Shown here in pieces: positions 34,514 to 58,724 of a stretch of DNA of 64,000 nucleotides. Position 1 is the stretch's first letter, and every line of letters begins with the position of its first letter. The notes beneath the pieces are model-generated. The model searched no databases. It had not been told where the DNA came from and worked only from the letters and a program-made list of their open reading frames with translations. A program made the translations under genes and the position numbers. The stretch is from an uncultured Chloroflexia bacterium (GTDB lineage: Bacteria > Chloroflexota > Chloroflexia > QHBQ01 > JADMIH01). The stretch spans positions 128,001 through 192,000 of the forward strand of contig CAWCNY010000005.1 of assembly GCA_963797095.1 (NCBI GenBank). The letters run 5' to 3'.

Positions 34514-34657
34514 AACCCTACCAACCCTACCAACCCTACCAACCCTACCAACCCTACCAACCCTACCAACCCTACCAACCCTACCAACCCTACCAACCCT
34601 ACCAACCCTACCAACCCTACCAACCCTACCAACCCTACCAACCCCACTAACCCCACT
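34514..34657 (+). repeat. 9-bp tandem repeat, 14x AACCCTACC + 2x AACCCCACT, encoding (NPT)16
   Basis: Read directly; 144 bp, in frame. Confidence 0.95.
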
Positions 34658-34901
34658 AACGAGGAAGTGCATGAATGGGCCAGGGGAGTGCGAGCACTGT
34701 ACGATGATGCCCATAAGCTGTTGGAAGAACACGAACTTGGCCCTCCCACTGCAGACGAAGCCACAAAAGAGCCACACAAGTGGGAGCAGCGTGTAAGAGA
34801 GTACCGGCGGTTGGTGGAAGGGGTTGCCAAGCTAGGTGCGCAGTATGCCGATGCCAAGGAGTTCGGGCCACAGGGCGGGGGCAAACAAGGGCCACAGGGC
34901 A

Positions 34902-34936
34902 GGGGCGGGGGCGGGGGCGGGGGCGGGGGCGGGGGC
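34902..34936 (+). repeat. (GGGGGC)n hexamer repeat encoding poly-Gly
   Basis: Read directly. Confidence 0.9.
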
Positions 34937-35152
34937 AAGAACGGTAACGGCCCCCAAAGAGCAAGCACCCATGCCACACCTTGTGCAAGAGACTGCTGCG
35001 CCACCAGGAGGAGTTATTCCAGTTCGTGATAGTGCCCACCTTATCCTCTGACAACAACCTGGCGGAACGGTCAATCCGTCCTGTGGTGGGGGTTTTTGCA
35101 TATCCCCCCAAAACGGTGCACTTCCCTTTCAGAGATATTTGGCGCTCCTCTG

Positions 35153-35497
35153 CTATTTGGCGAAGTTGTCCAGGCCGAATTGCTCCATGGGTAGGAAGAC
35201 ATTTTCTGGTTCGGGTTGCCCGCCGAAAATATAGTATGTATCCGCCCCTTTGGTGGCTCCTATCTCATAAACAGCCCACTCATAGCTAATATCGGCGAGG
35301 AAAATGAGCCAGTCTGCGGCTATTGTGGGGAGTTGCCTGGCTTGCACTGTCGCTTCGGTGAAGTATTCCCCCTTCAATTCATGCAGCTTATATAGGGGTG
35401 CAGTCCAAACATAAACTCTGTTATAGTTAAGCCAGCAAATGACGAACGGGCTTGTCTGACTGGCCTTTCTGTTATCTGAGTAAAGAGCCTTTCTCAC
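35153..35497 (-). CDS. hypothetical protein or gene fragment
   Basis: Protein-like ORF ending next to the left IR; no motif recognised. Confidence 0.35.
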   Translation of the reverse strand: MRKALYSDNRKASQTSPFVICWLNYNRVYVWTAPLYKLHELKGEYFTEATVQARQLPTIAADWLIFLADISYEWAVYEIGATKGADTYYIFGGQPEPENVFLPMEQFGLDNFAK

Positions 35498-35764
35498 TCG
35501 CTTAGGAGGTCAGGTGTGAATACTCATGGCATCAGCCCATTTATGGGGCTTTTGTTGATATTTCTGGCTATAATAGCGGCTGTAATCGTGTTCTCAGCAA
35601 ACTCCGATCATAAGCGGCCGACAGAAGTAGCGTTAGTGACTGAACTAACAGCATCGCCAGCTATCAGCATAACGCCTAGTGTTAGCCGGGGTATGAGTAG
35701 CAACGGAGCAGAGAAGTACGTTTAGCTGTTCAGTTTGGTGAACATAGTGCCTGGTTAGCGGAGC

Positions 35765-36406
35765 TTACTCGGGTGGTAAACCTGCCTCAGTCCGGAGCAG
35801 CATCCGTTCTTCGCGTAGACTCAGTCGTCGTTTCTGCTCTGGCGGTTCCGATGGTTCCGCTAACCTACGTCGATGTCTTGCTTCTTCAGTTTCTTCAGGC
35901 CCCAAAGGCCCGGAAGGTCCGGATTGAGCTTCCACCCTTCCTTCCCATGTGCCGGCCAACTCATCCACATCTGAGGCGATCCGACCCAAGATCCTGCGTA
36001 TCCGTTTCCCCATCGAATGGCACATATTCGGTTTGGGGTCTGTCTCCAGTCGCAGATTTACTGCTACCTGCTTTCCTTGCTCCAGTTGTTCAAGCCAACC
36101 AATACATTGCCGCAGTGCATCGGATCGTTGCTTAAGTTGCTCACGTTCGACTCCCGTGCTGTATGCAACTCGCACTATGGCTTCGATGAACTGAAACAGG
36201 GCGGATGGCGGCGCTCTAAGAAACGAACGTTTTCCGGTCCTGATACAGGCGGATAGCCGATGTAGCCACATGAGTGCCACACATGAGCCTACTGGCGCTT
36301 CAGCATACCACAAATCATGGGAGGTATGCCCCCGACTTTTCACTGCTCCCCCTTCTTGGGAGGCGAGGGTTTGTAAGACAGCAGTACTTGGGGTAAGTTC
36401 AGGCAT
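35765..36406 (-). CDS. hypothetical protein with hairpin-sequestered RBS
   Basis: AAAGGAG RBS before ATG; helical, charged C-terminus; no motif recognised. Confidence 0.5.
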   Translation of the reverse strand: MPELTPSTAVLQTLASQEGGAVKSRGHTSHDLWYAEAPVGSCVALMWLHRLSACIRTGKRSFLRAPPSALFQFIEAIVRVAYSTGVEREQLKQRSDALRQCIGWLEQLEQGKQVAVNLRLETDPKPNMCHSMGKRIRRILGRIASDVDELAGTWEGRVEAQSGPSGPLGPEETEEARHRRRLAEPSEPPEQKRRLSLREERMLLRTEAGLPPE

Positions 36407-36890
36407 CAGGAACTCCTTTCGGCTGTAGGATTGGGTTTGCTACCTCCTATCATGCCAAAAAGGGTTCCTTTATTCAGTTTGTGAATTGCTTAACTTGACG
36501 CGGATGGGGGTTCTGGCCTATAACCGTTGTGGCAAATGCCGCTGTTGTATAGGCCCCGTTATGGACTACTCTCGTGATATCCACGGCTTTTTAGTGCATT
36601 CCCCAATCACTTATAAAGTACACCTTGGCCTTGGTTATTGATTGGCATCAAGAATAGTGATTACTCACGTATCGATTTTCACCAATCCTTCACCATTCTG
36701 TTACCCGTATTATTACTAATGCTCGTTAAGCTACAGTAAACCAACCATGCAGTTCGGAGCATTGATATGTAACTTACTAATGGCGGACAGTTGGTGATTG
36801 GGTATTAGCTAATGACGCTCTGAGCTATCGGTTTGCTGAGTACCTTGCGGCGCCCTCAACTGTTCTACACGGGTAAAACAGGAGGCTACT

Positions 36891-38237
36891 ATGCGAAGCG
36901 AAAGTTACAAGGATTTCACCAGAGGCTTGCTTTTTACTCTGCTGCTTGGGTTGGCCATGGCGATAGCGCTTGCAGGCATTTTGTCGCGTGGGACTGGTCA
37001 ATCCGCTGGGAGCAAGGATCAGTCATCTCAGGGTGGCAATGTGGCGCAGGTACCGCTTCCACCAGGCACTCAGGAGCCTACTATTATTCCTGAAGTGACG
37101 CCATCGCGACCCGTCCCCTCCAACACACCTCTTCCTGCATCTTTGGGGGCCGCAACTATTGTCACGCCTACAACGTCAACTCTGCTCGTCAACGCGAACC
37201 TAAACCTCGGCGAAAAGATCTCGGTTGATCGTCCAGAACCAGTACATTCCCTTGCTTTTGCTCCGACGGGCGACAAACTCGTATACATGACGATATCGGG
37301 GAACTTGTACTGGTCAGATATTGATGGTTCTAATGCTACATTAATCGATACCTATGACCCAGCTGCGAATTACAGTATCCTTGATGATCAGATGCCAAAG
37401 GGCAATACCCTGTTTGTACCGGGCTATGCAATGCAATTCACTCCCGGCCAAGCACCCCAAATAACCGCTGCGCCTGCTACGTTGGGACTATCTCAGATTC
37501 GTTGGTGGAGCGCAATCAGAGCAAGCGGGGTCACAGGTGGTCCATTGCGCGACGGCTATGTAGGTGGTGAGCAACTGGTTACCCTGGAAGCTAGCGGGGG
37601 AGTCGTATCCACCCTCAATGTGCCCTATATGGAAACTGGTGCTGTGAAACCAGGAGGTCAATGGTTGGCATATGCCACCAGCCAACAAACTACCGATACG
37701 CCATTTGTTGGATCGACACCTCAAACCATTTATTTGCTGAACCTGTTGACCGGTGACCGCCTTCAACTCACCCAACCTGGGATGGGATGGGAAGTCTTTA
37801 GCTGGTCCCCTGATGCAAACTGGATATATGCCAGTGCGATCGTTAACGGCGATTTGTATGGTGTGATGATCAGTGCGGATGGACTTCAATGGGTGGTCGT
37901 TACGCCGCCTGGTCACAGTGGTTACGATGCTGTTTGGAGCCCTAACAGCAGTCTGCTTGCCTTCTCTGTCATAGACGGTGGATGCGACGGTGACACGAGT
38001 CCTTGCCCTCCACGGGAGAGCCAAGTATATGTGGTCAACGTCCCAGAGCGCAAGAAGACGTCAATTGGTACCGGGCCCGGCCCTTTTATGAGTAGCGGTG
38101 CAGAGATGATGCGGCCCAAATGGTCTCCTGATGGCTCTCTGTTAGCTTTGCTATCCTTCAACCCCGACTGTGAGCCGAATTGCCCATGTACAGGGCTTGC
38201 GCCAGCATACTTCATGATGAACGCGCCAACCAATTGA
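36891..38237 (+). CDS. membrane-anchored TolB/WD40-like beta-propeller protein
   Basis: N-terminal TM, Pro/Thr linker, repeats LAFAPTGD, FSWSPDA, AVWSPNS, PKWSPDG; GGAGG RBS. Confidence 0.8.
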   Translation: MRSESYKDFTRGLLFTLLLGLAMAIALAGILSRGTGQSAGSKDQSSQGGNVAQVPLPPGTQEPTIIPEVTPSRPVPSNTPLPASLGAATIVTPTTSTLLVNANLNLGEKISVDRPEPVHSLAFAPTGDKLVYMTISGNLYWSDIDGSNATLIDTYDPAANYSILDDQMPKGNTLFVPGYAMQFTPGQAPQITAAPATLGLSQIRWWSAIRASGVTGGPLRDGYVGGEQLVTLEASGGVVSTLNVPYMETGAVKPGGQWLAYATSQQTTDTPFVGSTPQTIYLLNLLTGDRLQLTQPGMGWEVFSWSPDANWIYASAIVNGDLYGVMISADGLQWVVVTPPGHSGYDAVWSPNSSLLAFSVIDGGCDGDTSPCPPRESQVYVVNVPERKKTSIGTGPGPFMSSGAEMMRPKWSPDGSLLALLSFNPDCEPNCPCTGLAPAYFMMNAPTN

Positions 38238-38338
38238 CCTCAGTCGTGGCTGTAAACTCTATTCTCAAACACACTTCGAAGTATTTGCTCGATCGTATGT
38301 CATGCGATTTTGCAGAGCAAAAGAGGAGCGACGAAACC

Positions 38339-39304
38339 ATGAACCAGAAACTAAGCCGTACTCATCGGAGAATGAGCGTGGCGCTTATATGGTGTGCTGC
38401 ACTGGTCGGACTGCTGGTGTGGTTGACGGCGTCACAAAGCACAGACAGTTTTGCTAGCACAGAAGGTTCGCAGCACAATAGCCAACCAGCTGGATATGCT
38501 GTTCCAACTCCATCAGCGTTTAAGAATCAAGACAACCAGGGCACCGAGGGATCGGATTCACCAACCGTGAATTTCCGTGAATTGACTAATTTCAAGTTTG
38601 TGCTGGATCCAGGACATGGCGGTACAGAACACCATGCGGTGGGACCGCGGGGTTCTCTGGAGAAGAACTGGAATTTGAGCATTTCCGAGAATTTGTACCC
38701 CAAATTGTCGGGTCATGGGGCTGTCGTATATCGTACTCGGACCTGTGACTGCACGGTATCGCTCGATGATCGTGTACGATTTAACAACAATCTGTACCAA
38801 AGTGGTGGCACCATAAATAACTGGCGCCTGATCTCGATCCACTTGAACGGGGCTTCTGATCCGGCGACTAACTATACCAGTACTTGGTATCGATATCAGA
38901 CTCCAAATGCCCCCAGCCAGGAACTGGCACGGGCCTTTGCAACTCAGATTGGAAGGACGACTAATCTGACTTCCTACGCCTGGACTGAAGATCTTGAGAT
39001 GACTAGATGTACGGAGCCGATAGGGTACAACATTCTGACGGAAAGCGGTTTCCTGACCAACGCGGCTTTCGAGAATAGACTGCTTGATCAAGGTTTTGCG
39101 AGTAGCCTGGCCGATGCTCATTATCGTTCGGCAGTGGATTACTGGCTGGTTGGCTATACAGGTCCACATCAGAACCTGAAACAGGACATTTACAACTCCT
39201 ACTGGGATAATCTCAATAATGGGATTGATCCAGGTGTGCCATTCGATAATGGAGGCGGCTATTATGCCCACCAATGGAACGATGCATTCACACAGGAGTT
39301 CAAG
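38339..39304 (+). pseudogene. secreted N-acetylmuramoyl-L-alanine amidase (Amidase_3), 5' part of an IS21-split gene
   Basis: Signal-like N-terminus; LDPGHGG, EKNWNL, ISIHLN, LTESGFLTN zinc/catalytic motifs. Confidence 0.87.
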
Positions 39305-39885
39305 TGTTTTTGTCAATAGAAAAGGGAGCCATTTGATAACCAAAAAGGGAGCCACTTCTCCTCCCCGACGAAAATATTGATAATTAAAAAAGGGAGCCAT
39401 TTGATAATCGAAAAGGGGGCCACACGGAAATCGCAAGTCTAGTGGGGACATCACGGACATGACTCTAGTCGACATTTGGAACAACATGGACCGCAGCACG
39501 GTCGTGGCTTATCGAACGGTCTTTGACGCTTCGCAACAATCGTTTGCATGGTGGGTTGTAATAATCCCTCTGGCGGTTGCGTTCGTCGGTGTTGGAATAT
39601 TGGTCAATCGCAGCCGCATACCCAAGGTACCTAGTGCCATAAGGATATCTGGATCTGTAACCCTGATCTGTGCTGGTTTGTGCGTTGCGATCTTCCTCTT
39701 TGCGTCGACGCTTTCCGCATATCATACTGGCAGCGATTTGCTCGCCACTAATCAGGCACAGGTTGCTGAGGGGCAAGTAATAGACCTAACCAGTACGGCC
39801 AGTGGCAAGGCCGAGAGCTTTAGGGTGCAAGGGGTCCAGTTTAGTTACTCCGAATACAGCGAGAGCCTTGGCTTTCACCATGTAA

Positions 39886-41184
39886 GGGACTCTCGATGAA
39901 TAAACTAGCCTCTTCTGGTGTTATACTCCAGTGATCACACTCTGGAGGTATGTTGATGGAACTAACCAACTCTCTCAAGACAATGCTAATCGAGACCGCT
40001 AAGTCCCTCAAAGGCAGTGACCGCCGCTTGTTTATGGCCCGTACCGTCAAAGAACTCGGTCCTGGTGGTCAAGCTCTCGCAGCCCGTGAACTGCACTGGG
40101 GCCGCATGACTATTCGCAAAGGTATCCATGAACTTGACACTGGCATCAGATGTGTCGATGCTTTCGCTGCGCGTGGCCGCAAGCGGTCAGAAGTTCATCT
40201 GCCCAACCTATTACCGGATCTGCAAGCTATAGTCGATAGCCAGAGCCAGGCTGATCCTCAGTTTCGTACTAACCGCCTCTATACCCGCCTCTCTGCCGCC
40301 GAAGTGCGCCGTCAGTTGATCGCGCAAAAGGGCTACACCGACCCGCAGTTGCCTACCCCAGAAACCATCGGGGGCAAGTTGAATGACCTGGGCTACTACC
40401 CCAAGAAGGTTGCCAAGTCGCAACCCCAAAAAAAGTCCCCCAAACTGATGCCATCTTCGAGCAAGTAAATGCGGTCAATCGCGCAGCCGATGCTAATGAG
40501 AGGGAATTGCGCATTTCTATGGACGCCAAAGCGGCTGTTTTAGTCGGGCCATTCTCCCGTGGTGGTAAGTCTCGTGTGCCGACCGCAGCCGCTGACCACG
40601 ACTTTGAAGCGCTGGCAAAGGTGACGCCAGTGGGGATTATGCTACCCCAGTCGAACGAATTGTTTCTATATGGCATTACTTCCAAAGTGACGAGTGACTG
40701 CCTGGTCGATTGTCTGGAGCAGTGGTGGCAGAGCGTGCGCAGTCGCTTCGCCACAATCAGGACGCTGGTGATCAATCTGGATAATGGACCGGAGAACCAC
40801 AGTCGGCGCACCCAATTCGTGCAGCGACTGCTGAATTTCGCATCGGACTACGGGATAAAGGTGCGGCTGGCTTACTACCCACCGTACCACAGCAAGTACA
40901 ATGCGGTTGAGCGCTGTTGGGGCATCCTGGAAAACCATTGGAACGGTGCATTACTCAACTCCATAGAGGCAGTAATTGCGTATGCGGGGACGATGACCTG
41001 GAAGGGGCGCCGACCGGCAGTGGAACTGGTGACAACAAGGTATGCCAGTGGGGTGAAACTGAGCAAAGAGGCGATGAAGGCAGTAGAAGGGCAACTCATA
41101 CGCCATAAAACGTTGGGCAAATGGTTTCTCGACATCACTCCTGCTCCACTCTACTCCCAGGCTTGTTAATTTCTTGAGAGTCCC
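39886..41184 (+). mobile_element. ISAzo13-family IS, 1299 bp
   Basis: IR GGGACTCTC / GAGAGTCCC; 3-bp TSD TAA. Confidence 0.88.
39950..41169 (+). CDS. ISAzo13 transposase, two ORFs joined by a probable -1 frameshift at A AAA AAG (40428-40435)
   Basis: RGRKRSE..QADPQFR; -1 frame PQTDAIFEQV, RISMDAKA, LDNGPEN, YYPPYHSKYNAVERCWG. Confidence 0.87.
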
Positions 41185-41399
41185 TAAGTACACTTGGGGG
41201 GCCAATGAAAGAGGGGCTACAAGTCAAGATTTGGTATGCCCACATAGACGGCGATCCCTCGGATCCGGTGATATTGAAGCTAGAGATATCACAGTGAATG
41301 GTTATAGCCATTTGGCATCGGAAGAGTAGGCACAGGGACCATCCTGCTCATTTACCCAGACGCAATAAGGCTCGGTGTGCCAATTAGGATACGCTCAGT

Positions 41400-41723
41400 T
41401 CACCAATTCCAAGGCTTGCGAGGCCGTCCTACCCGTGGTCGCCATCCGTAGGGGCTAGTGTCTCGCTTGCGCTTCTCCCGCTGGCGCGCCGTGTTCATCG
41501 CCCTTTGGGCTTCCCTTCGGCAACCATCGCAGTAACGCGGAGCTGCCCCTGGATACTGCCACACCTCTCGCTCCTCGCTGCACCACTCGCAACGGAACGA
41601 AACGAGTTGAGCGTGGAGGGTTCGTGTGTAGCCCCGGCAGGTCGTTACCACCTTCGAGGGCGGTTCGACGGCAGGTTCGCTAGCTGGGAGTGCGCTTGGG
41701 TTAGAGCTGGAGTTAGAGGTCAT
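41400..41723 (-). CDS. small zinc-finger-like protein (CxxC..CxxC, basic tail), IS21 passenger
   Basis: FRCEWC...PRYCDGCRREA..RQREKRKR; co-oriented just after istB. Confidence 0.6.
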   Translation of the reverse strand: MTSNSSSNPSALPASEPAVEPPSKVVTTCRGYTRTLHAQLVSFRCEWCSEEREVWQYPGAAPRYCDGCRREAQRAMNTARQREKRKRDTSPYGWRPRVGRPRKPWNW

Positions 41724-41764
41724 GACTTAATTTCGGCCATTTTGAGGTCAATTTTGCGAAAAAA

Positions 41765-42841
41765 CTAAGGCCGATCAGCGATGCTTGCCATTTGCGCCGG
41801 TTCTGCTTCCTCTGTCTCCCCGCTCTCCCCGATCTCCCCGCTCTCCCCGCTCTCCCCGCTCTCCCCGATCTCCCCCGCTTCTGCCCCCTCGTCTTCCTCC
41901 CCTCCTTCCATCTCTCGGCTCTCCAGACTCTGAATAGAACCGTACCCGAAATTCCCGTTCGCACCATCACCTGTTCTTTCACTTCGCCCCTGCCCCTGCC
42001 CCTGCACCTGTTGCTGTTGAAGACGCTGGCGAAAACGAAACAACTCTCCAACAAACTCCAGAATGTGTGCTTTGTGCGTGAGCCGGTCCAAAAGTGCAGC
42101 CGTCATTCGCTCATCTCCTAACACACTGTTCCAATCTCCAAATCGCAGGTTCGTAGTTATGATGATTGCCACTCTCTCGTAAAGGGTCGAACAGAACTGG
42201 AAGAGCAACTGCGCACCCGCCGCTGTAAATGGTATGAAGCCTAGCTCGTCCAGCACAATCACCTGCTGCTTGCACATCTGTGTCATGAAACGGGACAATC
42301 GCAGCTCCTGTTGTGCCTGGATCATATCATTGATTAAGCCTGCTACGTTGTAGAAGCGCACATGATGGCCCTGACGGCAAGCCGCAAGGGCAAGACTTGT
42401 GGCAATATGGGTCTTGCCAAGCCCTGGATTGCCAACCAAAAGGATCGGCTCTGCCCTCTGAATGTACCCACCCTGAGCCAGTTCAAGTACCCTCGTCTTG
42501 GCTAAACCCTGCACGACACTGAAATCGAAGTCAGCAAGCTCTTTGAGCACCGGGAATTTGGCGGAGGCGATAGAGCGTTCCACTCGATGCACTTCTCGTT
42601 GGCCTACCTCTCCTTCAGCCAGAGCTAACAGAAAACGTTCATAGCTGAGGTTGGTCTGTGCGGCATCTTGAGCCAACTTCTGGTAGTGTTGCACGAAGCT
42701 GGGCAATCGTAACTGGCGTAGATAGCTTTCCAGCAACATGTGATGTTCTGTCGCCCTTGCTGCCCTTGCTGGCTTTACCGTGTTCGTATTCGCCGTGTTC
42801 ACGGTCTGCGTCCTCTCCGTTCTCTCCCTCTCTTTCTCCAA
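41765..42841 (-). CDS. istB: IS21 helper ATPase IstB with low-complexity tail
   Basis: [35 protein letters not shown]; TTG start after GGAGG. Confidence 0.93.
41812..41878 (-). repeat. 9-bp tandem repeat (C/A)TCTCCCCG encoding GES/GEI in the IstB tail
   Basis: Read directly. Confidence 0.85.
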
Positions 42842-42842
42842 T

Positions 42843-44537
42843 TCATCCTCCTTGAAGCAGTTGCTCATAACGACGTAAGTCGATGGGCTGGCTGCCGATT
42901 TTGCCAATGGCTTGCAGGTGTGGGTGATCGGCCAGCCCTACCAGATCAAGACCTGCAAGCATGGTCAGCTCTGTTTCAGGCGTGGTGAGTTGCCTCAAAC
43001 AATGGGTAACTCCATCAAAATGAACACACCCATACGAAAGAGCCTGCCCAACTGCTCGCTCCACAAGCACAGCGGGATAATCCTGATGAAGTTGCAAGAT
43101 GCGGACAAACTCCTTCACTCCTCTGCCTTCCGGCCACTTCTCCCGTAACAGTTCCAACGCCTTCTCATATGTAGGTGGCCATTTGGCTCGCCACCGGCGC
43201 AATGGTTTGGCATAATCGAATGCCCCTGGCCGCTGAGCGAGCAAAGGCAGGTAATGCAGTGGCTCGAAGATATCCTGCTCTCGCTCGTAGCAGCGGGGAT
43301 GACGGGCAAGCAATCCTGGTAGGCCGGAGCGGCCGGGCTGGTCATGCGATTGATTACGTGGCTGGCCATCGTTGGGATTGGGGTTGGGATTGGGGTCGAA
43401 TATGTCCACATGGAAAGGGTAAGCCTTGACGATCACTTCTCGCCTTGCTCTCTCGACGGGCACCGAGTAGCGATTGGTCTCAAAGATCACCTGGCTGTAT
43501 GGAGTGAGATGTGCCGTGCTCGTCACGCAACATTCATATTGGTAGGAAGGTAGAGGACGCAGATGAGGTAGCTCCTGCTCCCAGGCTTCTTTGATGGTGG
43601 TGGGTTGGCGCGCAACCCGGCGCTGATCATCTCGCAGGCACTCGCTCAGAAGAAAGATGTTCAATGCTTCAAATGAGGCCACATCTGGGATAGGTACCAG
43701 GAAGTTGCGGCGGCTAAACCCTACGCTGTGTTCAACACCTCCCTTCTCATGCCCTTGTCCAGGCGTGCAGAAGTGGCTCTCGAACAGGTAATGACTACGA
43801 AAGGCTACGAATGCTCTCTGCTCTCGTCGTACTCGTCCTTCGATCAGGAGGCGCACCGAGCTGAAAGAGGCAACCGGATCCACCGCCGAGGCCAGGTTGT
43901 CGTAGCTGATACGTTGGGGAACTCCACCAAAGTGCTGGAAAGCTGCCACATGACCGGCAAAGAAGGCTTCTTGTTTCTGCGAGGGGTAGGCCATCACGAA
44001 GGATCGCCTTGAGTAGTTCAGACGCATGATGAACAACTGCACGGTTTGGCGCTCGCCACCGATGACGGCAACAGCTTCACCCCAGTCAACCTGGGCGTCC
44101 TTCCCAGGCTCGAACTCTAGTGGTATGAACAGGGGTGGTGCGTGATGGGCTTTGCGATATCTGCTCACGTGCAATCGCACGCGAGACTCGCTACCCTGGT
44201 AGCCTTCCTTGACCAAAAGTTCAAAGATCTTGCGAGCGGTGTAGCGTTGTTTGCGTGGGAGACGGTCGTTTTGCTGTAGGAGTTCGTCGACACGGGTCTG
44301 GAAAGAGCCGAACACCGGAGCGGGTCTAGGTTTGGTGCGCCGGTAAGTTGGGTAAGGGTACGGTTGGTAGAATTGGGACTGGGATGGGTCCTGAGCCTGG
44401 GCTTGGGCTTGGGCAATGGCTTTGTCAACAGTCTTGCGGGAGTGCCTTTGTTCTCGTGCGATCTGCCTGACACTCTTGTGTTCGAGGTAGAAGGCGCGGC
44501 GGATGGCTTCGTGTTGTTCCACGGTAATCATCTCCAC
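42843..44537 (-). CDS. istA: IS21 transposase IstA
   Basis: [34 protein letters not shown]. Confidence 0.93.
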
Positions 44538-44704
44538 CTCTCTTTGCTATCGTATCGTTTGCGGTCTAACGGTCTAGCCGAGTAACCGAAAGGCAACATC
44601 TTTGCCTTGTCCCAACGATAGCAAAGAGAGAGCTAAGTGGCTCCCTTTTTGACTGTCAAGATTTCATCGAATGGCTCCCTTTTACATTAGCAGAAACATT
44701 CAAG

Positions 44705-45679
44705 AGTGGTGGAGGCCCCTATGGCTCTCCCAAGGGTTCTATATTGGGCCCCTCGGGCGGCGGTAGAGCCTTCTATGTACCGGACCCGATCTGGCAGAAG
44801 TTCATCGATAAAGGAGGTCCAACACGCAGTGGGCCTGGACTTCCCTTCAGTACGGACCCTTATCCTTTGAACTGGAGGGCAGTACATTCGTGGAATCCTG
44901 TGAGAGGCGTGCGGGGCGTGCAGTACCACTATCCGAGCAGTGGTACAGGCCCAGGTGTGGTGAACTTCCAGAACGGCGCGATCACTAATAATAGCTACGA
45001 GGGTACCGTCTTCCTGCCAAACTGCAATGCTGTCGATTTGGTCGTGTACAATCCACCGCATTGGGCACGTGACTTCGCTCTTGGAATGATCAAGCGGTTT
45101 GCTGTCAGCAACGAACCATATTCCAATGGTGCAATCAATCTAGACAACTATCCATTTCGTACTGTGGAACAGCCCGCGACCAGGGCACAAGTAGCACAGA
45201 GCCTAATGCTCGCTGAGGGCTATGCCCCGTACAGCGGTCCTGACCTGTTCACAGACATAGCCAGCCATTGGGGTAGGCAGTGGATAAACATGGCTGCAAG
45301 AGAAGGCACCATCAATGGCTATCCGGACGGCACGTTCCGTCCAAACAATACCGTGACGCGTGGCCAGTTCTCCCAAATGGTCGTACTCGCTCGCAGGCCG
45401 AATTGGCCCATCACTACCCCACCGGCTACACACTTTGACAACCCTGGTTGCCCCAACGGGTATCGCAGTTTCGCTGATATCTGCTATGGCAGCACTTTCT
45501 ATACATACATAGAGATCGCCAAGGATCACGGTCTCATCAGTGGCTATGCATGCGGTGGTCCCGGTGAGCCGTGCCTGCCAAGCCACGCGCCCTACTTCAG
45601 ACAGAATGCTTCGCTTTCCCGCGGGCACATAATGAAGATGATAGACCTAGCGGTCCCACCCTCTGGTGTCTGCTGGTAA
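44705..45679 (+). pseudogene. 3' part of the amidase gene: LGFP-like repeats plus SLH domains
   Basis: In frame with ...QEFK after TSD removal; IWQKFIDKGG..GLP, NFQNGAI; FTDI..HWG..INGYPDGTFRP..TRGQF. Confidence 0.85.
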
Positions 45680-45808
45680 GCGATAACCAGAGGGAGTGCG
45701 TCGAGAATAAGAATAACTGAAGCGAGCCAGGAGAGGAAGACAGGTTCACCTGGCTCGCCCTTACATGGTACACACTCAACCAAGAGCCGCCAGGTATCGT
45801 AGTATGAC

Positions 45809-47665
45809 CTAGCGTTGGCTTGATTGAGCTATTGCTTGGAATGATTGAGCTATTGCTTGGAATACTATTTTTGAAACCTGTGCTCTAGTTGCAGGGCCCA
45901 TGGGGCGGAAAGTGCCATCCTGATAGCCTGAGATCACCCCATGATTGTAAGCCGTTTCCACATAAGTGTAGAAGGTGCTTTCAGGGACAACATCGGAGAA
46001 ATGCGGTCCGCCTTGTGTGTTTATCACCCACTCTTCAGCCAGAACCACAATCTTACACACCTGACTTCTTGCCGCGTCGTCGGCAGGGCGGAAAGTGCCA
46101 TCCGGGTAGCCTGAGATCACCCCATGATTGTAAGCCGTTTCTATATAGATATAGAACGGGTGACTAACGGGCACATCGGAGAAATGTTGTTGTAGTTGCG
46201 TGTCAATGGGCCAGCCTTTGCTCAATACCACAACCTTGGCTAGCTGGCCGCGCGTGGTAGTGTTGGCGGGGCGAAAGGTGCCGTCCGGATAGCCAATCAT
46301 AACCCCATGACAGGCAAGATACTGGGCTGCATCGTAGAAGTAGCTTCCGGGAAGAACATCGAAGAAATGAGGCGTGCGTTGCCCAACATACCGCTCAATT
46401 AGCGATCCTGAGGGAGATACCGATGGGGTGTTGTAACTCCCCACGGCCCATACCATGTCCTTTGATAGCGCGAGGACGGCCATTAGCTGATTTTCGATAG
46501 TGCCTACACTGGGGCTGGGCACAATATTCCACTGGCTGCCATTCCAATGCATTACGATTACCTGTTCTGCATAATAGGGCGCATAAGCTCCCACAGCCCA
46601 CACATCATCGGACGCGGTGGCTGAGACCCCGTAGAGGCGGGTTTCCGTGCCAAAGTTAGGGCTGAGCACAACGCTCCATAATGTGCCGTCCCAATGCATA
46701 ATCAGCCCTTTTTGCACTTGGTCATATCGACCTTGGAATCCAACAGCCCACACGTCATCCGAAGCAAGAGCGAAAACTCCTCGCAAATCGTTGAGATCAC
46801 TATCGGGGTTAGGACTATCGATCTGTACCCAACTCTTGCCGTCCCAATGCACGACAAACGTTTGATCATGACCAGTATCATCGAAGTTATAACCCACAGC
46901 CCATATGTCACTCGGTGAAATTATGGATACGGAGTTCAGTTGGTTGTACAGATTGGGACTTGGAGAAGGGTGCTGGAGCCAGTGGTTACCATCCCAATGT
47001 TCAATCAGAGTTTGATTACCATTGTCGCTTTGATAATAGCCAACTGCCCACACATCGTCAGAAGTGACCGCGCCGACACCAATGAGAAAGTTCGAGCTAC
47101 CTGGATTTGGGCTAGGAACTATGGTCCACTGGTTACCGTCCCAGTGCTCAATGAGAGTCTGTTCCTGGTATAAGCGGCCAAAATATCCCACAGCCCATAC
47201 ATTGTCAGAGGCAATGGCTGCCACACCTGAAAGCTTATTCGTCTGGAGGCCGTTTGGGCTTGGAACCTGAGTCCACCTCATGCCATCCCAGTGTACAGAA
47301 AGCGTTTCTATGCTACCGTATCCCCAGGTATTGCCGACAGCCCATATATCCTGCGTGGAGATCGCCGCAATCCCCGACAGCGCATTGTAAATAGCACCTG
47401 GACTAGGGCTAGACACGACCTCCCAAGGTATGCAGCCCCTAATTGATGGTGGGGCTACAACATGTGAAAGCGGTGAGCGGCCAGTTGAAGGAGCTAAATA
47501 CTTCTTTGCTTCCGAAGTTGCGAGCTGACGCTCATTCGCAGAAGCAGTAGCAACAACCCTATTCGATTGTTCTGCCGGGTTAGCGCCGGCAATTCCGTTA
47601 GTACAAATAAACACGAAGAGGAGCGATGCCCAAACATACACTATAGCATTTATGGCATTTCTCAT
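45809..47665 (-). CDS. secreted repeat (beta-propeller-like) protein with three SLH domains
   Basis: Signal peptide; about 7 repeats of DVWAVG...IEHWDG.W...SPN; three SLH repeats. Confidence 0.88.
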   Translation of the reverse strand: MRNAINAIVYVWASLLFVFICTNGIAGANPAEQSNRVVATASANERQLATSEAKKYLAPSTGRSPLSHVVAPPSIRGCIPWEVVSSPSPGAIYNALSGIAAISTQDIWAVGNTWGYGSIETLSVHWDGMRWTQVPSPNGLQTNKLSGVAAIASDNVWAVGYFGRLYQEQTLIEHWDGNQWTIVPSPNPGSSNFLIGVGAVTSDDVWAVGYYQSDNGNQTLIEHWDGNHWLQHPSPSPNLYNQLNSVSIISPSDIWAVGYNFDDTGHDQTFVVHWDGKSWVQIDSPNPDSDLNDLRGVFALASDDVWAVGFQGRYDQVQKGLIMHWDGTLWSVVLSPNFGTETRLYGVSATASDDVWAVGAYAPYYAEQVIVMHWNGSQWNIVPSPSVGTIENQLMAVLALSKDMVWAVGSYNTPSVSPSGSLIERYVGQRTPHFFDVLPGSYFYDAAQYLACHGVMIGYPDGTFRPANTTTRGQLAKVVVLSKGWPIDTQLQQHFSDVPVSHPFYIYIETAYNHGVISGYPDGTFRPADDAARSQVCKIVVLAEEWVINTQGGPHFSDVVPESTFYTYVETAYNHGVISGYQDGTFRPMGPATRAQVSKIVFQAIAQSFQAIAQSSQR

Positions 47666-47773
47666 GGAAGCCTCCTGGAGAACACGTAAGCAAGTAGGTA
47701 TGTTCTAAGTTCTGGTGATAGGTTACATCTTACTGGATAACCAGACTGATTGGAGCGTGAAGCAGTCGGTTAG

Positions 47774-48794
47774 GGAAGTGTCAGAAGTGAGGGCTCGCAA
47801 TCTCCCCAGCCATGTCCAATCCGTCTCAGCCAAGCCTCAACCCTGGCTTTCGTCTGCCTTCAGGCTGCCATTAGCATGTTTTACAGGGCACCAAATCGCC
47901 TCAGGAACAGCTGCCGTTGCTCCGATAGGGATAACTTTTCCCTCGACTTGCTACGATAGCGGAAATACTGCCGCTGCTCGCCGTACGCACTGCAGAACCG
48001 GGATGCCGAATCGAAACTACCAAATCCTCTCATTGACTAATATCGCTGCTTGATGCCCCGCTTGATGCCCCGATGATCCTGCTCCATACGGTTATTCAAA
48101 TAGCGATTTGTGCGGTGAACCACTTTCCGGCTAAGTATTCGACGTATGGCTCTTGGATAAGCATTATGCCCGTCTGTGGTCACCAGATCCGGGCGGCAAC
48201 CGGTCACTTCTTTGACCCCTTGAAGAAGCGCTTGGCTGCACCCATGTCCCGCCTCTTGGAGAGCATAGAGTCCACCAAATTGCCGTCCATATCTATGGCG
48301 CTGCACAGATAGCGCCACTTACCACCACCTTGACACAGCTCTCATCAATATACCACGAGCGGCCAGCCTTGCCCCTGCATTTGGGTCGGAGCAGTTATGT
48401 GAGCAAGGGGGCGAAGCGTGCTTCCCAGTCCCTCACCACCTCGTGAGTGAATTCGAACCCGTGGTCCAAGAACATTTCTGCCAGGTCCCTCAGGCTGAGC
48501 TTGTATCGCAATCTCCTCAAGACAACAAGTAGTACAAGGTCGGTTGGAAACTGCAGGTGGTTGAATTGAGTACCAGTGCGCTCATTGAAGACGCGAGTGC
48601 ATACTCTGCAACGGAACACGTTGTAGCCGAGGGAGATTTTCCTGGAGAGAAGGGTAGTGAAAGAGGAGGAGGAGCAGTGAGGGCAATTCATCGGCAGTCC
48701 TTGGGTATTCTTTGCTAGGAGATGGATAGAGTAGGGTAAGCATACCCCATAATCGTCATCATCGCTACCGCCTGTTCTCATTTCTGACCCTTCC
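47774..48794 (-). mobile_element. IS6-family element with degenerate transposase (47860-48691)
   Basis: IRs GGAAGTGTCAGAAGTGAG / GGAAGGGTCAGAAATGAG; MNCPHC, RYKLSLRDLAEM, TTDG, NNRMEQDHRGIK, MRGFGSF with stops and frameshifts; no TSD. Confidence 0.82.
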
Positions 48795-49225
48795 CCCACA
48801 GTGGGCTCGAGTATATCTCCTCCACTAGTTGGGCGCAATTTGTGCCTGCTATTGGCAGAGAGTAGGACACGAAGTGTGGAAAAATACTAAAGTGCCACTG
48901 CCAAGATGCGATAAGGAACTCTTGATTCGAAACACGGCGATATTCATGGCAAGCTATGTGATTGTATGGCATTCCGAGGAGCAATTGGCCCTGCCACTAG
49001 TGGCAGATTCATTGCATGTACCACATGTATGTTGTCTCCAGCATTGTCCACCTGGTGATATTCGTTGTCAAATGGGTAAAGCTAAAGCGTAAAAATATTA
49101 ACACCATGTCAACTTATTCTTTACCGGCGTTTCAACCTCCAAATGCTAAAGTTGTGATGCAATGGCTTATTGTCACCACAAAGCGGACGTTCCGCGCCAT
49201 GGGAGTTTCAACGAGGAGGTTAATC

Positions 49226-50638
49226 ATGGTAAAGCTTAGAAATATGAAGCGGTATGTCGGGATCTTGCTGACCTTGATAGCAACGGTTCTTGTAGTGTGG
49301 CTTTTGATCGGGCTGACATTTCCACCAAACCGAAATCCGATCAGGGCGGTGAGCGCACAAACAGGAGCAGACATGTTATTTGCGCAGGTGCCGCCACCTC
49401 CTGTCGAGACAGGAGTACCAACCTTCGTACCATTTTCTTCTCCCACTCCGGTTGCTACATACACTACTGAACCGGATCCTCCGCTCGCCCAGCCGCCTGT
49501 GGCGGTCAGCCTACCAAGGGGCGCCCATCCAGCACCGAACATAGCTTGGGCCATCCAAACCAGAAACACCCTGGCTATTTGGATAGGGACATATGCCGAA
49601 GTTGGGTCGCCTAGGGTTCAGGATCCTAGACCAATAGTGCGATGGAATGCTCCGCTTGAAGTCATTGATCTGGTGCCATCACCAGACGGCCAGGCACTTG
49701 CTGTTCTGGCCTATGATCGCCAAGCCAGAGAAACCGGAGATATGCTGCCAAATTGGCTTTGGACTGTGGATCTCAACACGAATGCTGTACAATCTCTGCC
49801 CGATTATACGCATTACGATCTGTACAAATGGTATTACTTTGGTTCGCCCGGTCGTATCCTTGGCTGGATCGATGTGAATCGTCTAGCAGTTCAGCGAACG
49901 GGTGGCTTCCCTGTAATTGCACGCCGGGATGGAACTTCCTATGATGAGGTTACATTCCCACAAGGCGGAGTTGGGCAGGTGGCACTCTCCCCGGATCGTA
50001 CGACGTTTTTCGCGGACGCTTTCAGCAGAGACACCTATGAATACGGCTTATGGTTGAACAACATTGACGGCAGCAATCCGCGCTTGTTGGTGGATGAGGC
50101 TCATGTTCGCCCCGTGGACAATCCTCAATGGTCACCAAATGGTAGATACGTCAGTTTCGGAACTCCTAAGCAGGCCACAATCCCTGATGGCAGCAAACAG
50201 GTCGTACAAGGCTATCGGAGTATCTGCCTGCTAGATGTGTCGACCCACACACTTTCAATTCTGGGCAATGAGGACAGTTGGGATGCTTCTCCGCAATGGT
50301 CTAGTGATAGCTCAACACTTGCGTTCCTACGTGCTCCGGCCCCAGTCGCCAATGACGGTGAGGCCTACTATGGCGCATATGAGAAGGTGAGTACCCACCT
50401 CTATTCAGTAGATGTGCGCGACCCTCAATTGCAGGCCAGGCAGTTGCTTCCACGCGCAGGCAACACCAGTATTCTCAAGTGGATACCCGACGCTGGGCTC
50501 TTGTTAGCTTCGACATTGGACGCACCCGACAACCAGCCAAGGATGGCCCTCTTCTCACTCGGATCAGGTAACCTAATCTCGTTGCTAGAGCGCACACAGG
50601 GTGAGACTATGGTACATCCGGTCTACATCTCTCGTTAG
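49226..50638 (+). CDS. membrane-anchored TolB/WD40-like beta-propeller protein
   Basis: GGAGG RBS, N-terminal TM, Pro/Thr linker, PSPDG, LSPDR, PQWSPNG, PQWSSDS repeats. Confidence 0.82.
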   Translation: MVKLRNMKRYVGILLTLIATVLVVWLLIGLTFPPNRNPIRAVSAQTGADMLFAQVPPPPVETGVPTFVPFSSPTPVATYTTEPDPPLAQPPVAVSLPRGAHPAPNIAWAIQTRNTLAIWIGTYAEVGSPRVQDPRPIVRWNAPLEVIDLVPSPDGQALAVLAYDRQARETGDMLPNWLWTVDLNTNAVQSLPDYTHYDLYKWYYFGSPGRILGWIDVNRLAVQRTGGFPVIARRDGTSYDEVTFPQGGVGQVALSPDRTTFFADAFSRDTYEYGLWLNNIDGSNPRLLVDEAHVRPVDNPQWSPNGRYVSFGTPKQATIPDGSKQVVQGYRSICLLDVSTHTLSILGNEDSWDASPQWSSDSSTLAFLRAPAPVANDGEAYYGAYEKVSTHLYSVDVRDPQLQARQLLPRAGNTSILKWIPDAGLLLASTLDAPDNQPRMALFSLGSGNLISLLERTQGETMVHPVYISR

Positions 50639-50705
50639 CAGCTCCTTCTTTGAGGTTCTATCAAGTATTAATCAAGACATACATGAGCAGTGTCTAGGAG
50701 GATTA

Positions 50706-52556
50706 ATGATATGAAGAGTTCGAACTCTTCTGCGTACCTTGCTCGTCTCAGCTGTCGCTGCTGCCATGTTCCAACTTCCAGTTGTGAATACTTTAGTAGA
50801 TGGCGACCCTACGGCCCAGGCAAGCGGGTTTGTGAGTCCTGTTACGATGCAGGCCCAACGCACCAATGAAAGTAGTGCAAAACCATCCAATCCAGAAGCC
50901 AGTAGTAGCCAAGACATACCTGACAGTGAATTCTTCCTACTCAGCTTCCCACTCTCTTCAAGATGGTATGTGTGGCGAATGCCCTCCGACCAGTGGACTT
51001 ACCAAATCTATACCTCAATGGTCGACCATAACCCCCCCTTCTATAGTGGCAACTCCACTCTTGAACCTTACACTGGTGAGTATGGTCCAACGTCTGGAGC
51101 ACCTCTTGCGAACAGTTGTGGAGATCTGCACTGGACGCATAGAGGTTACTGCTATGATGGCCATCCAGGTTTGGACCTAGCAGTAGTGGAATATACCCCG
51201 GTCTATGCTTCACATAGCGGGCGAGTGATCAGGGCTAGTGACATAGCTGATGGCTATGGTGTCACGGTGCTGCTTCGGGATGAAACCAACCCGAGCTATA
51301 TAACCCGCTACTCGCACTTCTTTGACGCTTCCGTGGTCGTGGGTGCGCATGTTGCTCGTGGTCAACAGATAGGTAGAAGTGGACACTCCGGAAGTGGCAC
51401 CGGCCAACATCTGCACTTTGGACTCTACTACGACAGTACCTGGAACAACAATGATCCCCACGATTGGGTTGGGCAGGTAGTCGACCCCTATGGCTGGTTC
51501 TCGTTGAGGCCCAATGGTTTAGGTGCTCCGGTGAATGACAATAAATGGGCAGGGGGCTATTCCTCGCAAGGAGCCACAAACGAACCGCCGTCAATCAACT
51601 TTAACGATGGTACGCTACAAGGCCACCAATATAGAAGCAAGTCTCTCATCTGGTCGGGTGTCCACAAAGTAGGTGCGTCAGGTCCGGACGAAATTGAGGA
51701 ATGGTGGGCCAACACTTATGGAGCAGCCGGACCACCTCTCAATGACAAATACAATCCTAAAGGCCAGACCTATTGGTGCCAGGACTTTGAAGGTGGAAAG
51801 TACTGCACTAATGGTATTGGCTACCAACCTTACTATGCCTTCACCGACGTGCCTATATCCCAGTGGGCACATCGCGACATTGAATGGGCGAAGCGCGAAG
51901 GTATATCGGATGGATATACAGACCCCTCTCGGTGTCCAAATGGTATACCATGCTTCCGCCCATACGATTTCGTATCAAGGGGGCAGATATCGAAGATGAT
52001 CGTGAACGCCTTCAGCTTCCCCATCAGTACGTCAGGTGGTCCACATTTTGCAGATGTTCCGGTGGGATCTACCTTCTACGACTACATCGAGACTCTTTAC
52101 AATCGGATTGTCGACAGCCAGAGAATAATCTCAGGCTATCCAGGCGATCCAAACCATTGGAATGCATGTCTTAGTCCTCCTGCATACGAGATGTCGGGCC
52201 TCACGTACTTCAGGTGGTGCGAGAACGTCAAACGTGGGCAGATGGCGAAGTTTACCGCCATGTCAATGGTAAGTAAGCTCTGGCTTACTCACGGCCTTGA
52301 TGCGACAACGCTCGGATCCGATCATGGCGCTGATTACTTTGACGTGCCAAGTTACGATACCTACTTCCGCGTTGTTAGGACCTTGCAGGATATTGGCGTC
52401 GTTCAATACCATCGAGCCGATGGTGATCCAGGTTGTACCAGTTACGGCTTTACATCTGAGCAATGCCAGTCTCTGGGGCATTTCTATACCTACTGGGATG
52501 CAACCCGCGCACAAGTGGCTCAGATTCTTCACGAAGCCATTTACTCTGTTCCATAA
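50706..52556 (+). pseudogene. secreted M23 peptidase + LGFP-like + SLH protein; TGA at codon 3 after the best RBS
   Basis: AGGAGG-ATG ATA TGA AGA GTT CGA... continues in frame into a signal peptide; GHPGLD, YSHF, GQQIGRSG..HLHFG; SLH repeats. Confidence 0.75.
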
Positions 52557-52619: not shown

Positions 52620-52786
52620 TTTGCGGAGATATGATGCCAAGCCAAATACCAACCAAGCAGACATCGACTGTTTCCACCTGTGCCTTAACCACTCCTTCGA
52701 CATGATAGATGGGAAAGCATTGGAATTGATGGCCGTTTTGTGCTTCTGTGATATTGTCTCACGCGCTACCAACAAAGGAGGATAAA

Positions 52787-53626
52787 ATGCTTAAGAAATC
52801 ACTGCCACTCGTTCTCATTTCTGCGATCGCGATTGTACTCATTACTACCTATCAGCCAATGTCTCTCGTTCAGTCAATTACCAAAAGTCAACCGGAACAG
52901 GTGCAAAGTACAGACACCGCAACATGTCAACGCTTCAACGAGACTGGTTTCCAAGTGTGTGGGAGGCTATTAGCTTATTGGTATAAGTATGGCGGGCTAC
53001 AGCAGTTCGGTTATCCGGTCAGCGAACCTTTCAAAGAGATCTCCGAAGTGGATGGAGAGGAGCATACTGTACAATACTTCGAGCGTGCAGTATTCGAGTT
53101 ACATCCCAAGAACCAGCCACCTTATGACTTATTGCTCTCCCAGTTGGGAAGACAGAAGTACCAGCAAAAATATCCGTCCGGCACCTCAGGTACTGAATGG
53201 ACAGGAGATCCACAACCAGATCTCAACATAAGCAAGCAATTACGCACCGGAATCAATATCAAGCTGATACGGGCAGAGCAAGGCGCAATAACTGGATTAT
53301 ACTCTGGATACTGTGGGCTCCAGATGACGTGGGTACTGCAAATCGAAAACACAGGCAACACACCCTTTGATGCAGAACTGGATACGGGAAATCTGAGGAT
53401 GGCAGACAGCACTGGCAAGAGCTATTCCCCCACTCGTGAGTGTGGCGGAAGCTCTGTTACTCCTTATAGTGGGTCATTTGCGCAACCTACTCGTATGATG
53501 CCCGGTGACATCCTGAGAGGTACGATAGCTTTCAATGCTAGTGACATTCCGTTGAGCGCATCCTACTTTCAAATCAGAGTCAACTTCTCAGGTATGCCAG
53601 TTGAGTTTCGGTATATGCTACCATAG
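52787..53626 (+). CDS. secreted protein with Chloroflexi-type F.ETG/QYFER repeat and C-terminal Ig-like domain
   Basis: Signal peptide; RFNETGFQVCGRLLAYW..GGLQQFGYPVSE..VQYFERAVFELHP; AAGGAGG RBS. Confidence 0.8.
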   Translation: MLKKSLPLVLISAIAIVLITTYQPMSLVQSITKSQPEQVQSTDTATCQRFNETGFQVCGRLLAYWYKYGGLQQFGYPVSEPFKEISEVDGEEHTVQYFERAVFELHPKNQPPYDLLLSQLGRQKYQQKYPSGTSGTEWTGDPQPDLNISKQLRTGINIKLIRAEQGAITGLYSGYCGLQMTWVLQIENTGNTPFDAELDTGNLRMADSTGKSYSPTRECGGSSVTPYSGSFAQPTRMMPGDILRGTIAFNASDIPLSASYFQIRVNFSGMPVEFRYMLP

Positions 53627-58675: not shown

Positions 58676-58724
58676 CCGGAGCCAAATGCACCGTTTTGGG
58701 GGGATATGCAAAAACCCCCGTGGT

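Follow-up and report, generated by a model that had tools for sequence, protein, structure and literature searches.

Why would a bacterium twice place the gene of a membrane-anchored beta-propeller directly in front of the gene of a secreted enzyme that cuts cell wall? The question is raised by a 64-kb stretch of DNA from an uncultured member of the Chloroflexia (contig C5, positions 128001-192000; hereafter the window), an ordinary chromosomal stretch of a 6.0-Mb genome assembled in eight contigs. A sequence-only reading had described the layout correctly: in two places, a membrane-anchored PD40 propeller gene stands directly upstream of a gene for a secreted, SLH-anchored hydrolase, once an Amidase_3 enzyme and once an M23 endopeptidase. 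It had also proposed that these pairs form a transposon-borne, polymorphic contact-killing system with swappable toxin domains. We find that the pairs are chromosomal rather than mobile, and that every full-length M23-SLH ortholog and every amidase-SLH ortholog found in the order is accompanied by a propeller of the matching family. We give a probability of about 0.5 to direct control of each hydrolase by its propeller, acting as its cognate partner in the envelope. The genes in question are as follows.

36891-38237, + strand: propeller 1, 448 amino acids (aa); N-terminal membrane anchor, Pro/Thr-rich linker, PD40/TolB-like beta-propeller
38339-39304, + strand: amidase gene, 5' part; signal peptide and Amidase_3 catalytic domain, 322 codons
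44699-45679, + strand: amidase gene, 3' part; linker matching no known family and Cys-rich SLH anchor
49226-50638, + strand: propeller 2, 470 aa; membrane anchor, Pro/Thr-rich linker, PD40/TolB-like beta-propeller of a family other than that of propeller 1
50706-52556, + strand: M23 endopeptidase gene with SLH anchor; in-frame TGA at 50712-14, open from TTG 50739, 605 codons

The pairing is strictly conserved when viewed from the hydrolase. Across 40 genomes of the order, full-length M23-SLH orthologs lie directly behind a propeller-2 homolog in 8 of 8 places, in seven genomes besides this one (7 of 7 without G013:C234, from an unpublished genome; G numbers denote genomes of the comparison set, with G000 as the genome of the window, C numbers contigs, and L numbers fetched loci). 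Amidase-SLH orthologs detected at E <= 1e-20 lie behind a propeller-1 homolog in 3 of 3 cases, as does the fragmented copy in G127 (4 of 4). Thus, the gene order is kept in varied contexts, and the lack of conservation that the sequence-only reading had named as its refutation did not materialize. The partner gene is upstream in all 12 ortholog pairs. In ten pairs the two genes share a strand and are 12-143 nucleotides (nt) apart; in an eleventh, in G112, they overlap, which we read as an over-long start call of the open reading frame (ORF). Within the window's pairs there is no terminator-like site between propeller and hydrolase genes, and the two are probably co-transcribed. The pairing spans two families and still holds where propeller identity falls to 29-33%, with each hydrolase type tied to its own propeller family. 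One genome (G085) carries two pairs that are mutually only 37%/40% identical.

Viewed from the propeller, the association is looser. Homologs of both propellers were sought in 151 genomes of the class; most relatives are fragmented metagenome-assembled genomes (completeness 57-93%), and the genome sets searched are samples. Propeller 1 was matched in 10 genomes, all within the window's own order. Ten loci from published genomes were fetched (two rows from a 2-kb contig of the unpublished G097 were omitted), and in four of them the gene directly downstream encodes an Amidase_3-SLH protein (G074:C47, G019:C91, G109:C7 and the fragmented G127:C16). The next gene in the remaining six is, respectively, an AAA ATPase, PfkB, a convergent GGDEF-EAL gene, a C5-epimerase, isocitrate dehydrogenase and one unidentified gene. 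Propeller 2 was matched in 19 genomes. Twenty loci from published genomes were fetched (omitting rows of the unpublished G013, G031 and G097 and three contig-end rows); two of these stop just past the propeller, leaving 18 informative loci: 7 with an M23 gene downstream, 1 with a remnant that lacks M23 and 10 with another gene.

Five loci of weaker amidase paralogs were not counted as pairs, four of them having no propeller within 1.5 kb; at one weaker paralog (G130:C540) there is a generic PD40 ORF, but on the opposite strand, and it was rejected as a pair. In G127, both pairs are split into short ORFs with internal stops (one TGA and three TAG in the propeller match; L063, L028, L079). Assembly indel noise is a likelier cause than decay, so this genome was counted as paired and kept out of the alignments. 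Among the six M23 and three Amidase_3 genes of the window's genome, only the two in the window have a PD40 neighbor.

The clade that carries these modules is narrow. The catalytic part of the enzyme has no ortholog at E <= 1e-25 in 400 other genomes sampled across the phylum, and contig scans with the propeller alignments returned no new loci apart from one weak match in Poribacteria. A metagenome scan with the M23 alignment returned five distant M23 proteins that have other architectures and no SLH and are uninformative on pairing. Among public sequencing runs, no RNA run was listed as containing these sequences; one soil DNA run contained a small share of the sampled words. In the literature searched (subscription journals lay outside it), we found no description of a propeller-hydrolase pairing.

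Both downstream genes appear to encode wall hydrolases anchored at the cell surface by SLH domains. The Amidase_3 domain (PF01520) on the ORF 38339-39319 scores 81.7 bits (E 8.7e-23, cut-off 27) over 170 of 174 model positions, and the SLH match in 44744-45679 scores 57.7 bits (E 1.1e-15, cut-off 20.8). In the M23 protein (50739-52556), Peptidase_M23 (PF01551) reaches 74.7 bits (E 6.8e-21, cut-off 28.7) and SLH 28.9 bits (E 1.1e-6, cut-off 20.8). The hydrolase and SLH domains named by the sequence-only reading are therefore all above their cut-offs. The LGFP-like repeat that it placed between them was not confirmed: the linkers have no Pfam match, LGFP or other, even at E <= 10. The SLH tails of the two proteins are 35% identical (E 1e-16). 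SLH proteins are very numerous in the clade, and the genome encodes a csaB-type pyruvyl transferase (PF04230, 108 bits; C6:937702-938631).

The catalytic residues are also intact, as had been noted from the letters of the sequence. The amidase aligns with the solved amidases 4rn7, 7rag (CwlD) and 1jwq, and also with LytH, and keeps the metal and catalytic residues: its motifs GHGG, LEKNW, SIHLN and LTESGF match the same positions in 4rn7 and in CwlD. The assignment of metal-ligand roles (His, Glu, His) and of the catalytic Glu follows the available text of PMC9245657. Amidase residues 87-268 align end to end with residues 6-181 of 4rn7, a helix-less enzyme, and the best-scoring model is that of CwlD, at 65 bits against a cut-off of 221. 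Thus, the amidase retains the catalytic motifs of active, solved enzymes. The M23 domain aligns with solved active M23 enzymes, and H142, D146, H193, H224 and H226 (the HxxxD, H and HxH/HLH motifs) are invariant in seven M23 orthologs. Judged by these motifs, the M23 protein is an active form and not a degenerate LytM.

In this genome, both hydrolase genes had been described as disrupted. For the amidase, this is borne out: an element of the IS21 family of insertion sequences (IS) occupies 39305-44698, flanked by a 6-bp target duplication (TTCAAG at 39299-39304 and 44699-44704). Deleting the insertion together with one TTCAAG copy restores a single frame (...TQEFK|SGGGPYG). The duplication, the terminal inverted repeats of the element and this frame continuity together indicate that the gene was cleanly split. 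For the M23 gene, an early TGA had been reported. An in-frame ATG at 50706 does meet this TGA two codons on; however, an ATG-AAG at 50711, well spaced behind an AGGAGG, lies out of frame, and the M23 orthologs begin MK(R). We therefore suspect a 1-2 nt indel at the very start of the gene, or an assembly error, and 50711 is likely the true start; the rest of the gene is intact. A 292-aa secreted-looking protein without Pfam or NCBIfam match is encoded directly behind the M23 gene (52748-53626, + strand), and it is not found behind the M23 gene in the relatives examined.

The upstream proteins have the architecture first described for them, a membrane segment followed by a Pro/Thr-rich linker and a TolB-like propeller. 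In both, the N-terminal anchor is hydrophobic, and Pro, Thr, Ser and Ala make up 45-52% of residues 36-110. In propeller 2 a Leu stands at the lipobox position, where most orthologs have the lipobox Cys. The PD40 match is weak for the window's own propellers (E 1.3e-3 for propeller 1 and 6.6e-4 for propeller 2) and better for propeller-1 homologs, up to E 7e-12. Against solved structures, the propeller-1 family profile matches TolB at E 1.8e-9, and the propeller-2 family profile matches S9-peptidase and TolB structures at E 9e-10 to 3e-9. On this profile evidence, the C-terminal bodies of both proteins can be classed as PD40 beta-propellers. An identification as TolB itself was rejected: TIGR02800 gives only 25 and 29 bits (cut-off 343), and there is no tol or pal gene among the neighbors.

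The two propellers are highly divergent from each other, as had been suspected. Their BLASTP similarity is not significant, and a profile comparison (hhalign) relates only the last blades (97.8%, E 8e-13, 112 columns). Among the best 150 matches listed from 1.84 billion representative proteins, the full-length propeller-2 family comprises about 50 clusters of at most 604 aa, none of them fused to an enzyme; no propeller-hydrolase fusion occurs among longer proteins either, which is weak evidence. A 42%-identical paralog of propeller 1 lies elsewhere in the genome, followed by an IS66 element and parAB.

If the pairs are so faithful, are they carried as a unit by mobile DNA? Upstream of the locus lie ssb, lipAB, pyruvate dehydrogenase genes, recR, a MoxR/DUF58/VWA cluster and ftsH. 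Mobile elements crowd the region from 33.5 to 58.7 kb, all with near-identical copies elsewhere in the genome; they are listed here together with the duplicated segment and the gene of an SLH repeat protein that lies among them.

33504-35089, + strand: IS66-family element; DDE_Tnp_IS66 E 2.2e-22; copies on C4 and C6 at 98.7-100%; flanks the locus
35087-38395, no strand assigned: duplicated 3.3-kb segment; a 213-aa ORF, propeller 1 and the first 57 nt of the amidase gene
39305-44698, - strand: IS21-family element inside the amidase gene; IstA 42843-44537, IstB 41765-42907
~39885-41185, + strand: ISAzo13-type element nested in the IS21-family element; DDE_Tnp_ISAZ013 E 3.3e-61 and 1.2e-8
45809-47665, - strand: repeat protein of 618 aa with three SLH domains (SLH E 1.6e-34), convergent to the amidase gene
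54619-58719, + strand: Tn3-family element; resolvase 54619-55194 (- strand) E 6.6e-37, transposase 55400-58675, DDE_Tnp_Tn3 E 1.8e-123

The insertion sequences invaded this one genome recently. The IS21-family element (IstB_IS21 E 5e-70; IstA with rve and Mu-transposase C-terminal domains) has four other copies, on C1 and C3, at 99.4-100% identity, and these are contiguous across the point where the ISAzo13-type element is inserted in the window. The transposase of the latter is split into two ORFs (39950-40468 and 40507-41169), and the element has two copies on C2 at 99.9-100% identity. Identities of 99.4-100% between IS copies indicate that the damage to the amidase gene is recent. At about 4.1 kb without the nested element, the IS21-family element is large for its family, and an extra ORF for a 146-aa membrane protein (39459-39899) lies at its left end. 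An Rfam scan of window positions 33000-56000 returned a single match, a chance microRNA below its threshold.

This crowding is what recommends a transposon-borne cassette with exchangeable toxin domains, as do two further facts: two catalytic types share a similar SLH tail, and the 3.3-kb segment with propeller 1 is duplicated on C3 (89425-86117; 99.97% identity, with an identical propeller 1 at 86278-87621), where it ends, 57 nt into the amidase gene, at a Tn3-family transposase accompanied by a tyrosine recombinase, and is bordered at its other end by a further integrase gene. No inverted repeats enclosing this C3 copy were found, however, and only two lytic domain types were seen. The Tn3-family element of the window (55331-58719 is 99.97% identical to C1) is a unit separate from, and downstream of, the M23 pair. 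Relatives carry the two pairs on separate contigs, surrounded by housekeeping genes (gatB, gdh, an aminoacyl-tRNA synthetase gene, selA, tgt, dnaN and ychF) and with no adjoining transposase. The M23 pair is followed by selA in G085 and by tgt in G112, and in this genome selA and tgt stand side by side 12.4 kb behind the M23 gene. By this synteny, the M23 site is older than the split of the two families. Thus, the pairs sit at conserved chromosomal positions, an ancestral one in the case of the M23 pair, and the mobile elements are recent copies beside or inside the genes.

The protein architecture also departs from that of a polymorphic toxin. Set against the features described in the available text of the 2012 survey of polymorphic toxins (PMC3482391), both hydrolases carry only a Sec-type signal, with no type 5, type 6 or type 7 (T5, T6 or T7) trafficking domain; they have catalysis at the N-terminus and SLH at the C-terminus; and the partner is encoded upstream where an immunity gene would be downstream, with no cassette array at any locus. 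We regard a mobile contact-killing cassette as very improbable.

Beside the amidase pair, the convergent gene for the 618-aa SLH protein is arranged as in G019. Homologs of this protein adjoin the amidase pair in three of four relatives (G019, 51%; G127, 42%; G074, 36%), the exception being G109. The protein has about eight "WAVG"-type repeats, with weak Rax2/DUF2510 matches, and at least five paralogs in the genome.

What, then, might the propellers do? We propose that a clade of uncultured Chloroflexia has two envelope modules of two genes each, chromosomal and specific to the lineage. In each, the second gene would supply a Sec-exported hydrolase that SLH domains hold on the producer's own wall: either an Amidase_3 enzyme, which would remove stem peptides from the glycan, or an M23 endopeptidase, which would cleave peptide bridges. 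The first gene, probably transcribed just ahead of it, would supply a PD40 propeller on a lipid or helix anchor, with a long Pro/Thr-rich linker that could reach the wall zone. Each propeller would bind its own hydrolase and control its action on the producer's wall. Direct control by binding is the simplest reading of a genetic coupling that is both deep and specific, and there are precedents with unrelated folds for Amidase_3 enzymes in the available text of PMC9245657. A further parallel is that PD40 propellers elsewhere in this genome lie next to or within peptidases (S9, S41/PDZ, M1), among them a propeller-then-S41 pair whose genes run in the same order.

Whether such control would restrain or assist the enzyme is a closer call, and we lean slightly toward an inhibitory gate, which would keep the enzyme off membrane-proximal, newly made wall, over an activator or positioning partner. 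This lean reflects four points: both enzymes look complete and unblocked, the protector would be made first, the hydrolase never stands alone while the propeller sometimes does, and Tsi1 is an example of a propeller-like protein that plugs a wall amidase (available text of PMC3391265).

Several findings weigh against direct control of the producer's own enzyme. The amidase lacks both the blocking helix and the H-x-D signature of LytH, AmiB and AmiC, enzymes that depend on an activator. The H-L-N that it has in place of H-x-D is no more than a sequence hint, and CwlD has H-L-N too. A second M23 protein of this genome, with three SLH domains, has no propeller neighbor, which indicates that SLH-anchored hydrolases do not need a propeller in general. 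The pairs are accessory (the M23 pair in 8 and the amidase pair in 5 of the 40 genomes of the order), and both are missing from several genomes that are 90-93% complete. Both partners diverge far faster than housekeeping genes, with identities of 29-54% within the genus: identity to this genome's proteins is 37-54% for the propellers and 44-50% for M23, compared with 63-88% for housekeeping proteins, a pattern as compatible with genes in conflict as with surface proteins. Pairwise identities of the propellers correlate with those of the enzymes (r = 0.71), as is expected from shared descent alone. Intact propellers without a hydrolase nest inside paired clades (twice in G066, and in G074 and G142) in quick trees that carry SH-aLRT support only and leave several forks unresolved. 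In G054 (L067; G054:C110, 1425-2412, - strand), a whole propeller-2 homolog is followed by a hydrolase gene that lacks the M23 domain; what is left of it is the SLH tail and the first 114 residues, which share 45% identity with the G085 enzyme. The suggestion that propellers outlive hydrolases thus holds in relatives, and a hydrolase that is never alone beside a propeller that sometimes is would be predicted if the propeller conferred immunity.

These same observations bring up the main alternative, which we consider unlikely though worth taking seriously: the hydrolases might be secreted lysins that act on related filaments with the same wall polymer, with the tethered propeller as the producer's inhibitor and orphan propellers as protection. 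Such a view retains the core of the sequence-only reading but drops its transposon-borne and polymorphic elements. The 8 of 8 and 4 of 4 pairing, the orphan propellers and the G054 remnant, and the patchy distribution of fast-diverging partners within the genus all agree with it. So does the state of this genome, where both hydrolases are damaged, both propellers are intact and propeller 1 has an extra copy; however, this damage is very recent, and the intact propellers weigh little. There is a structural precedent as well: Tsi1, the inhibitor of the peptidoglycan amidase Tse1, is described as a partial DPP-IV-like beta-propeller in the available text of PMC3391265. Against such lysins, no feature for release or delivery was seen, SLH is this clade's usual anchor to its own surface and a csaB homolog is present. 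The pairs are inherited vertically at a conserved chromosomal site, with no cassette arrays or extra immunity genes. The orphans might be paralogs with other roles, given that relatives adjoin an ECF sigma factor gene, topA or ABC transporters. Furthermore, beta-propeller immunity proteins are not reported in the available text of the 2012 survey (PMC3482391). A more specific version, in which tethered PD40 propellers form a new inhibitor class that provides immunity against Sec-secreted, SLH-targeted lysins exchanged between neighboring Chloroflexia filaments, with two families recruited independently (for an amidase and for an M23 endopeptidase) and orphans kept as protection once the weapon is gone, seems to us doubtful.

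An indirect link between the two genes has also to be weighed. The propeller might bind the product or substrate of the enzyme (stem peptides or wall polymer) or sense the wall, the two genes being merely co-expressed. PD40 propellers classically bind or gate peptides, as in S9 and tricorn-type proteases, and other PD40 genes of this genome adjoin or are fused with S9, S41/PDZ or M1 peptidases, or adjoin a FemAB-family gene. An indirect link would also suit the persistence of orphan propellers and the propeller-2 relatives with an N-terminal extension that lie behind an ECF sigma factor gene with a 4-nt overlap, although no anti-sigma domain was detected in them by Pfam. Yet two propeller families are each faithful to one hydrolase type over deep divergence, which recognition between the proteins would explain more readily than a small ligand common to both, and the pairing is complete from the hydrolase side. 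We therefore judge an indirect link improbable, and direct control of each hydrolase by its own propeller remains our preferred explanation.

Several PD40 loci encountered along the way deserve description in their own right. The sigma-adjacent relatives of propeller 2 (about 32% identity; L074, G118:C382 2-5218, and L075, G085:C235) have an N-terminal extension of 150 aa and overlap the upstream sigma factor gene in the manner of anti-sigma sensors; in L074, the next gene encodes an FAD oxidoreductase with three SLH domains. In the window's genome, a 418-aa PD40 propeller is followed by a 493-aa Tricorn_C1, PDZ and S41 protein (L139; C5:221670-224437). This resembles a tricorn-type protease split into two genes, and its propeller-first order is that of the hydrolase pairs. 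A further PD40 link to wall peptides is found where a FemAB-family gene (peptidoglycan bridge formation) overlaps a downstream gene for a 350-aa PD40 propeller by a few bases (L008; C2:1075976-1078245). Propellers also appear to be displayed directly on the wall of this organism, as a 1239-aa PD40-SLH fusion adjoins an 809-aa Kelch-repeat SLH protein (L147; C2:392170-395892).

The control of wall-cutting enzymes is little known outside model phyla, and the amidase partners described (EnvC/NlpD, ActH and GerS) are few and structurally unrelated. Strict pairing of two hydrolase types with two PD40 propellers would add a new partner fold, and it would offer a pair of proteins open to direct testing from the envelope of the Chloroflexia, which has been little studied. 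Should the propellers turn out to be inhibitory, they would be the first hydrolase inhibitors built as full beta-propellers, and could then mark a form of antagonism between SLH-walled bacteria that is independent of secretion systems. The general reach is uncertain given the narrowness of the clade, with about 50 propeller-2 clusters among the best 150 matches listed and no enzyme ortholog in the 400 genomes sampled.

How do these modules compare with known systems? TolB of the Tol-Pal system has the same PD40 repeat type and provides the best structural relatives by profile (E ~1e-9). It differs in that our propellers score 25-29 bits against 343, have no tolQRA or pal nearby, and carry an anchor and Pro/Thr-rich linker in place of the TolB N-terminal domain. 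SLH-anchored autolysins, of which Bacillus anthracis has examples, share the combination of a catalytic domain with an SLH wall anchor, but no conserved propeller partner of theirs is described in the literature searched, again with subscription journals outside it. The available text of PMC6403190 names SLH as one of the modules by which type-3 amidases bind the wall.

The closest functional parallels are amidases with dedicated partners. According to the available text of PMC9245657, structurally unrelated membrane- or lipid-anchored proteins directly control Amidase_3 enzymes in the ActH-LytH, GerS-CwlD and EnvC/NlpD-AmiA/B/C systems. As in LytH-ActH of Staphylococcus aureus and CwlD-GerS of Clostridioides difficile, the window pairs an Amidase_3 enzyme with an anchored extracytoplasmic partner, for which we propose binding. 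Here, a PD40 propeller takes the place of the TPR repeats or the beta-sheet lipoprotein; the amidase carries an SLH anchor and has H-x-N where LytH has H-x-D; and a parallel M23 module exists. We found no statement on the adjacency of the GerS and CwlD genes in PMC8496864. The Escherichia coli amidases likewise have dedicated partners (EnvC/NlpD; available text of PMC9245657), but they carry a blocking helix and their activators are degenerate M23 (LytM) proteins, whereas the amidase of the window aligns with helix-less enzymes and its M23 protein is, by its motifs, catalytically intact and a member of the other pair.

The Pseudomonas aeruginosa pair Tse1-Tsi1 is comparable in setting a wall-cleaving enzyme beside an extracytoplasmic, DPP-IV-like propeller that blocks it (available text of PMC3391265). 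Tsi1 is, however, a small, three-sheet partial propeller, and Tse1 is delivered by a T6 system and is neither an Amidase_3 nor an M23 enzyme; in the window, no secretion system, delivery domain or effector-then-immunity order was seen. The conserved pairing points to the propellers as a new kind of partner that controls wall hydrolases, rather than as part of a mobile killing system.

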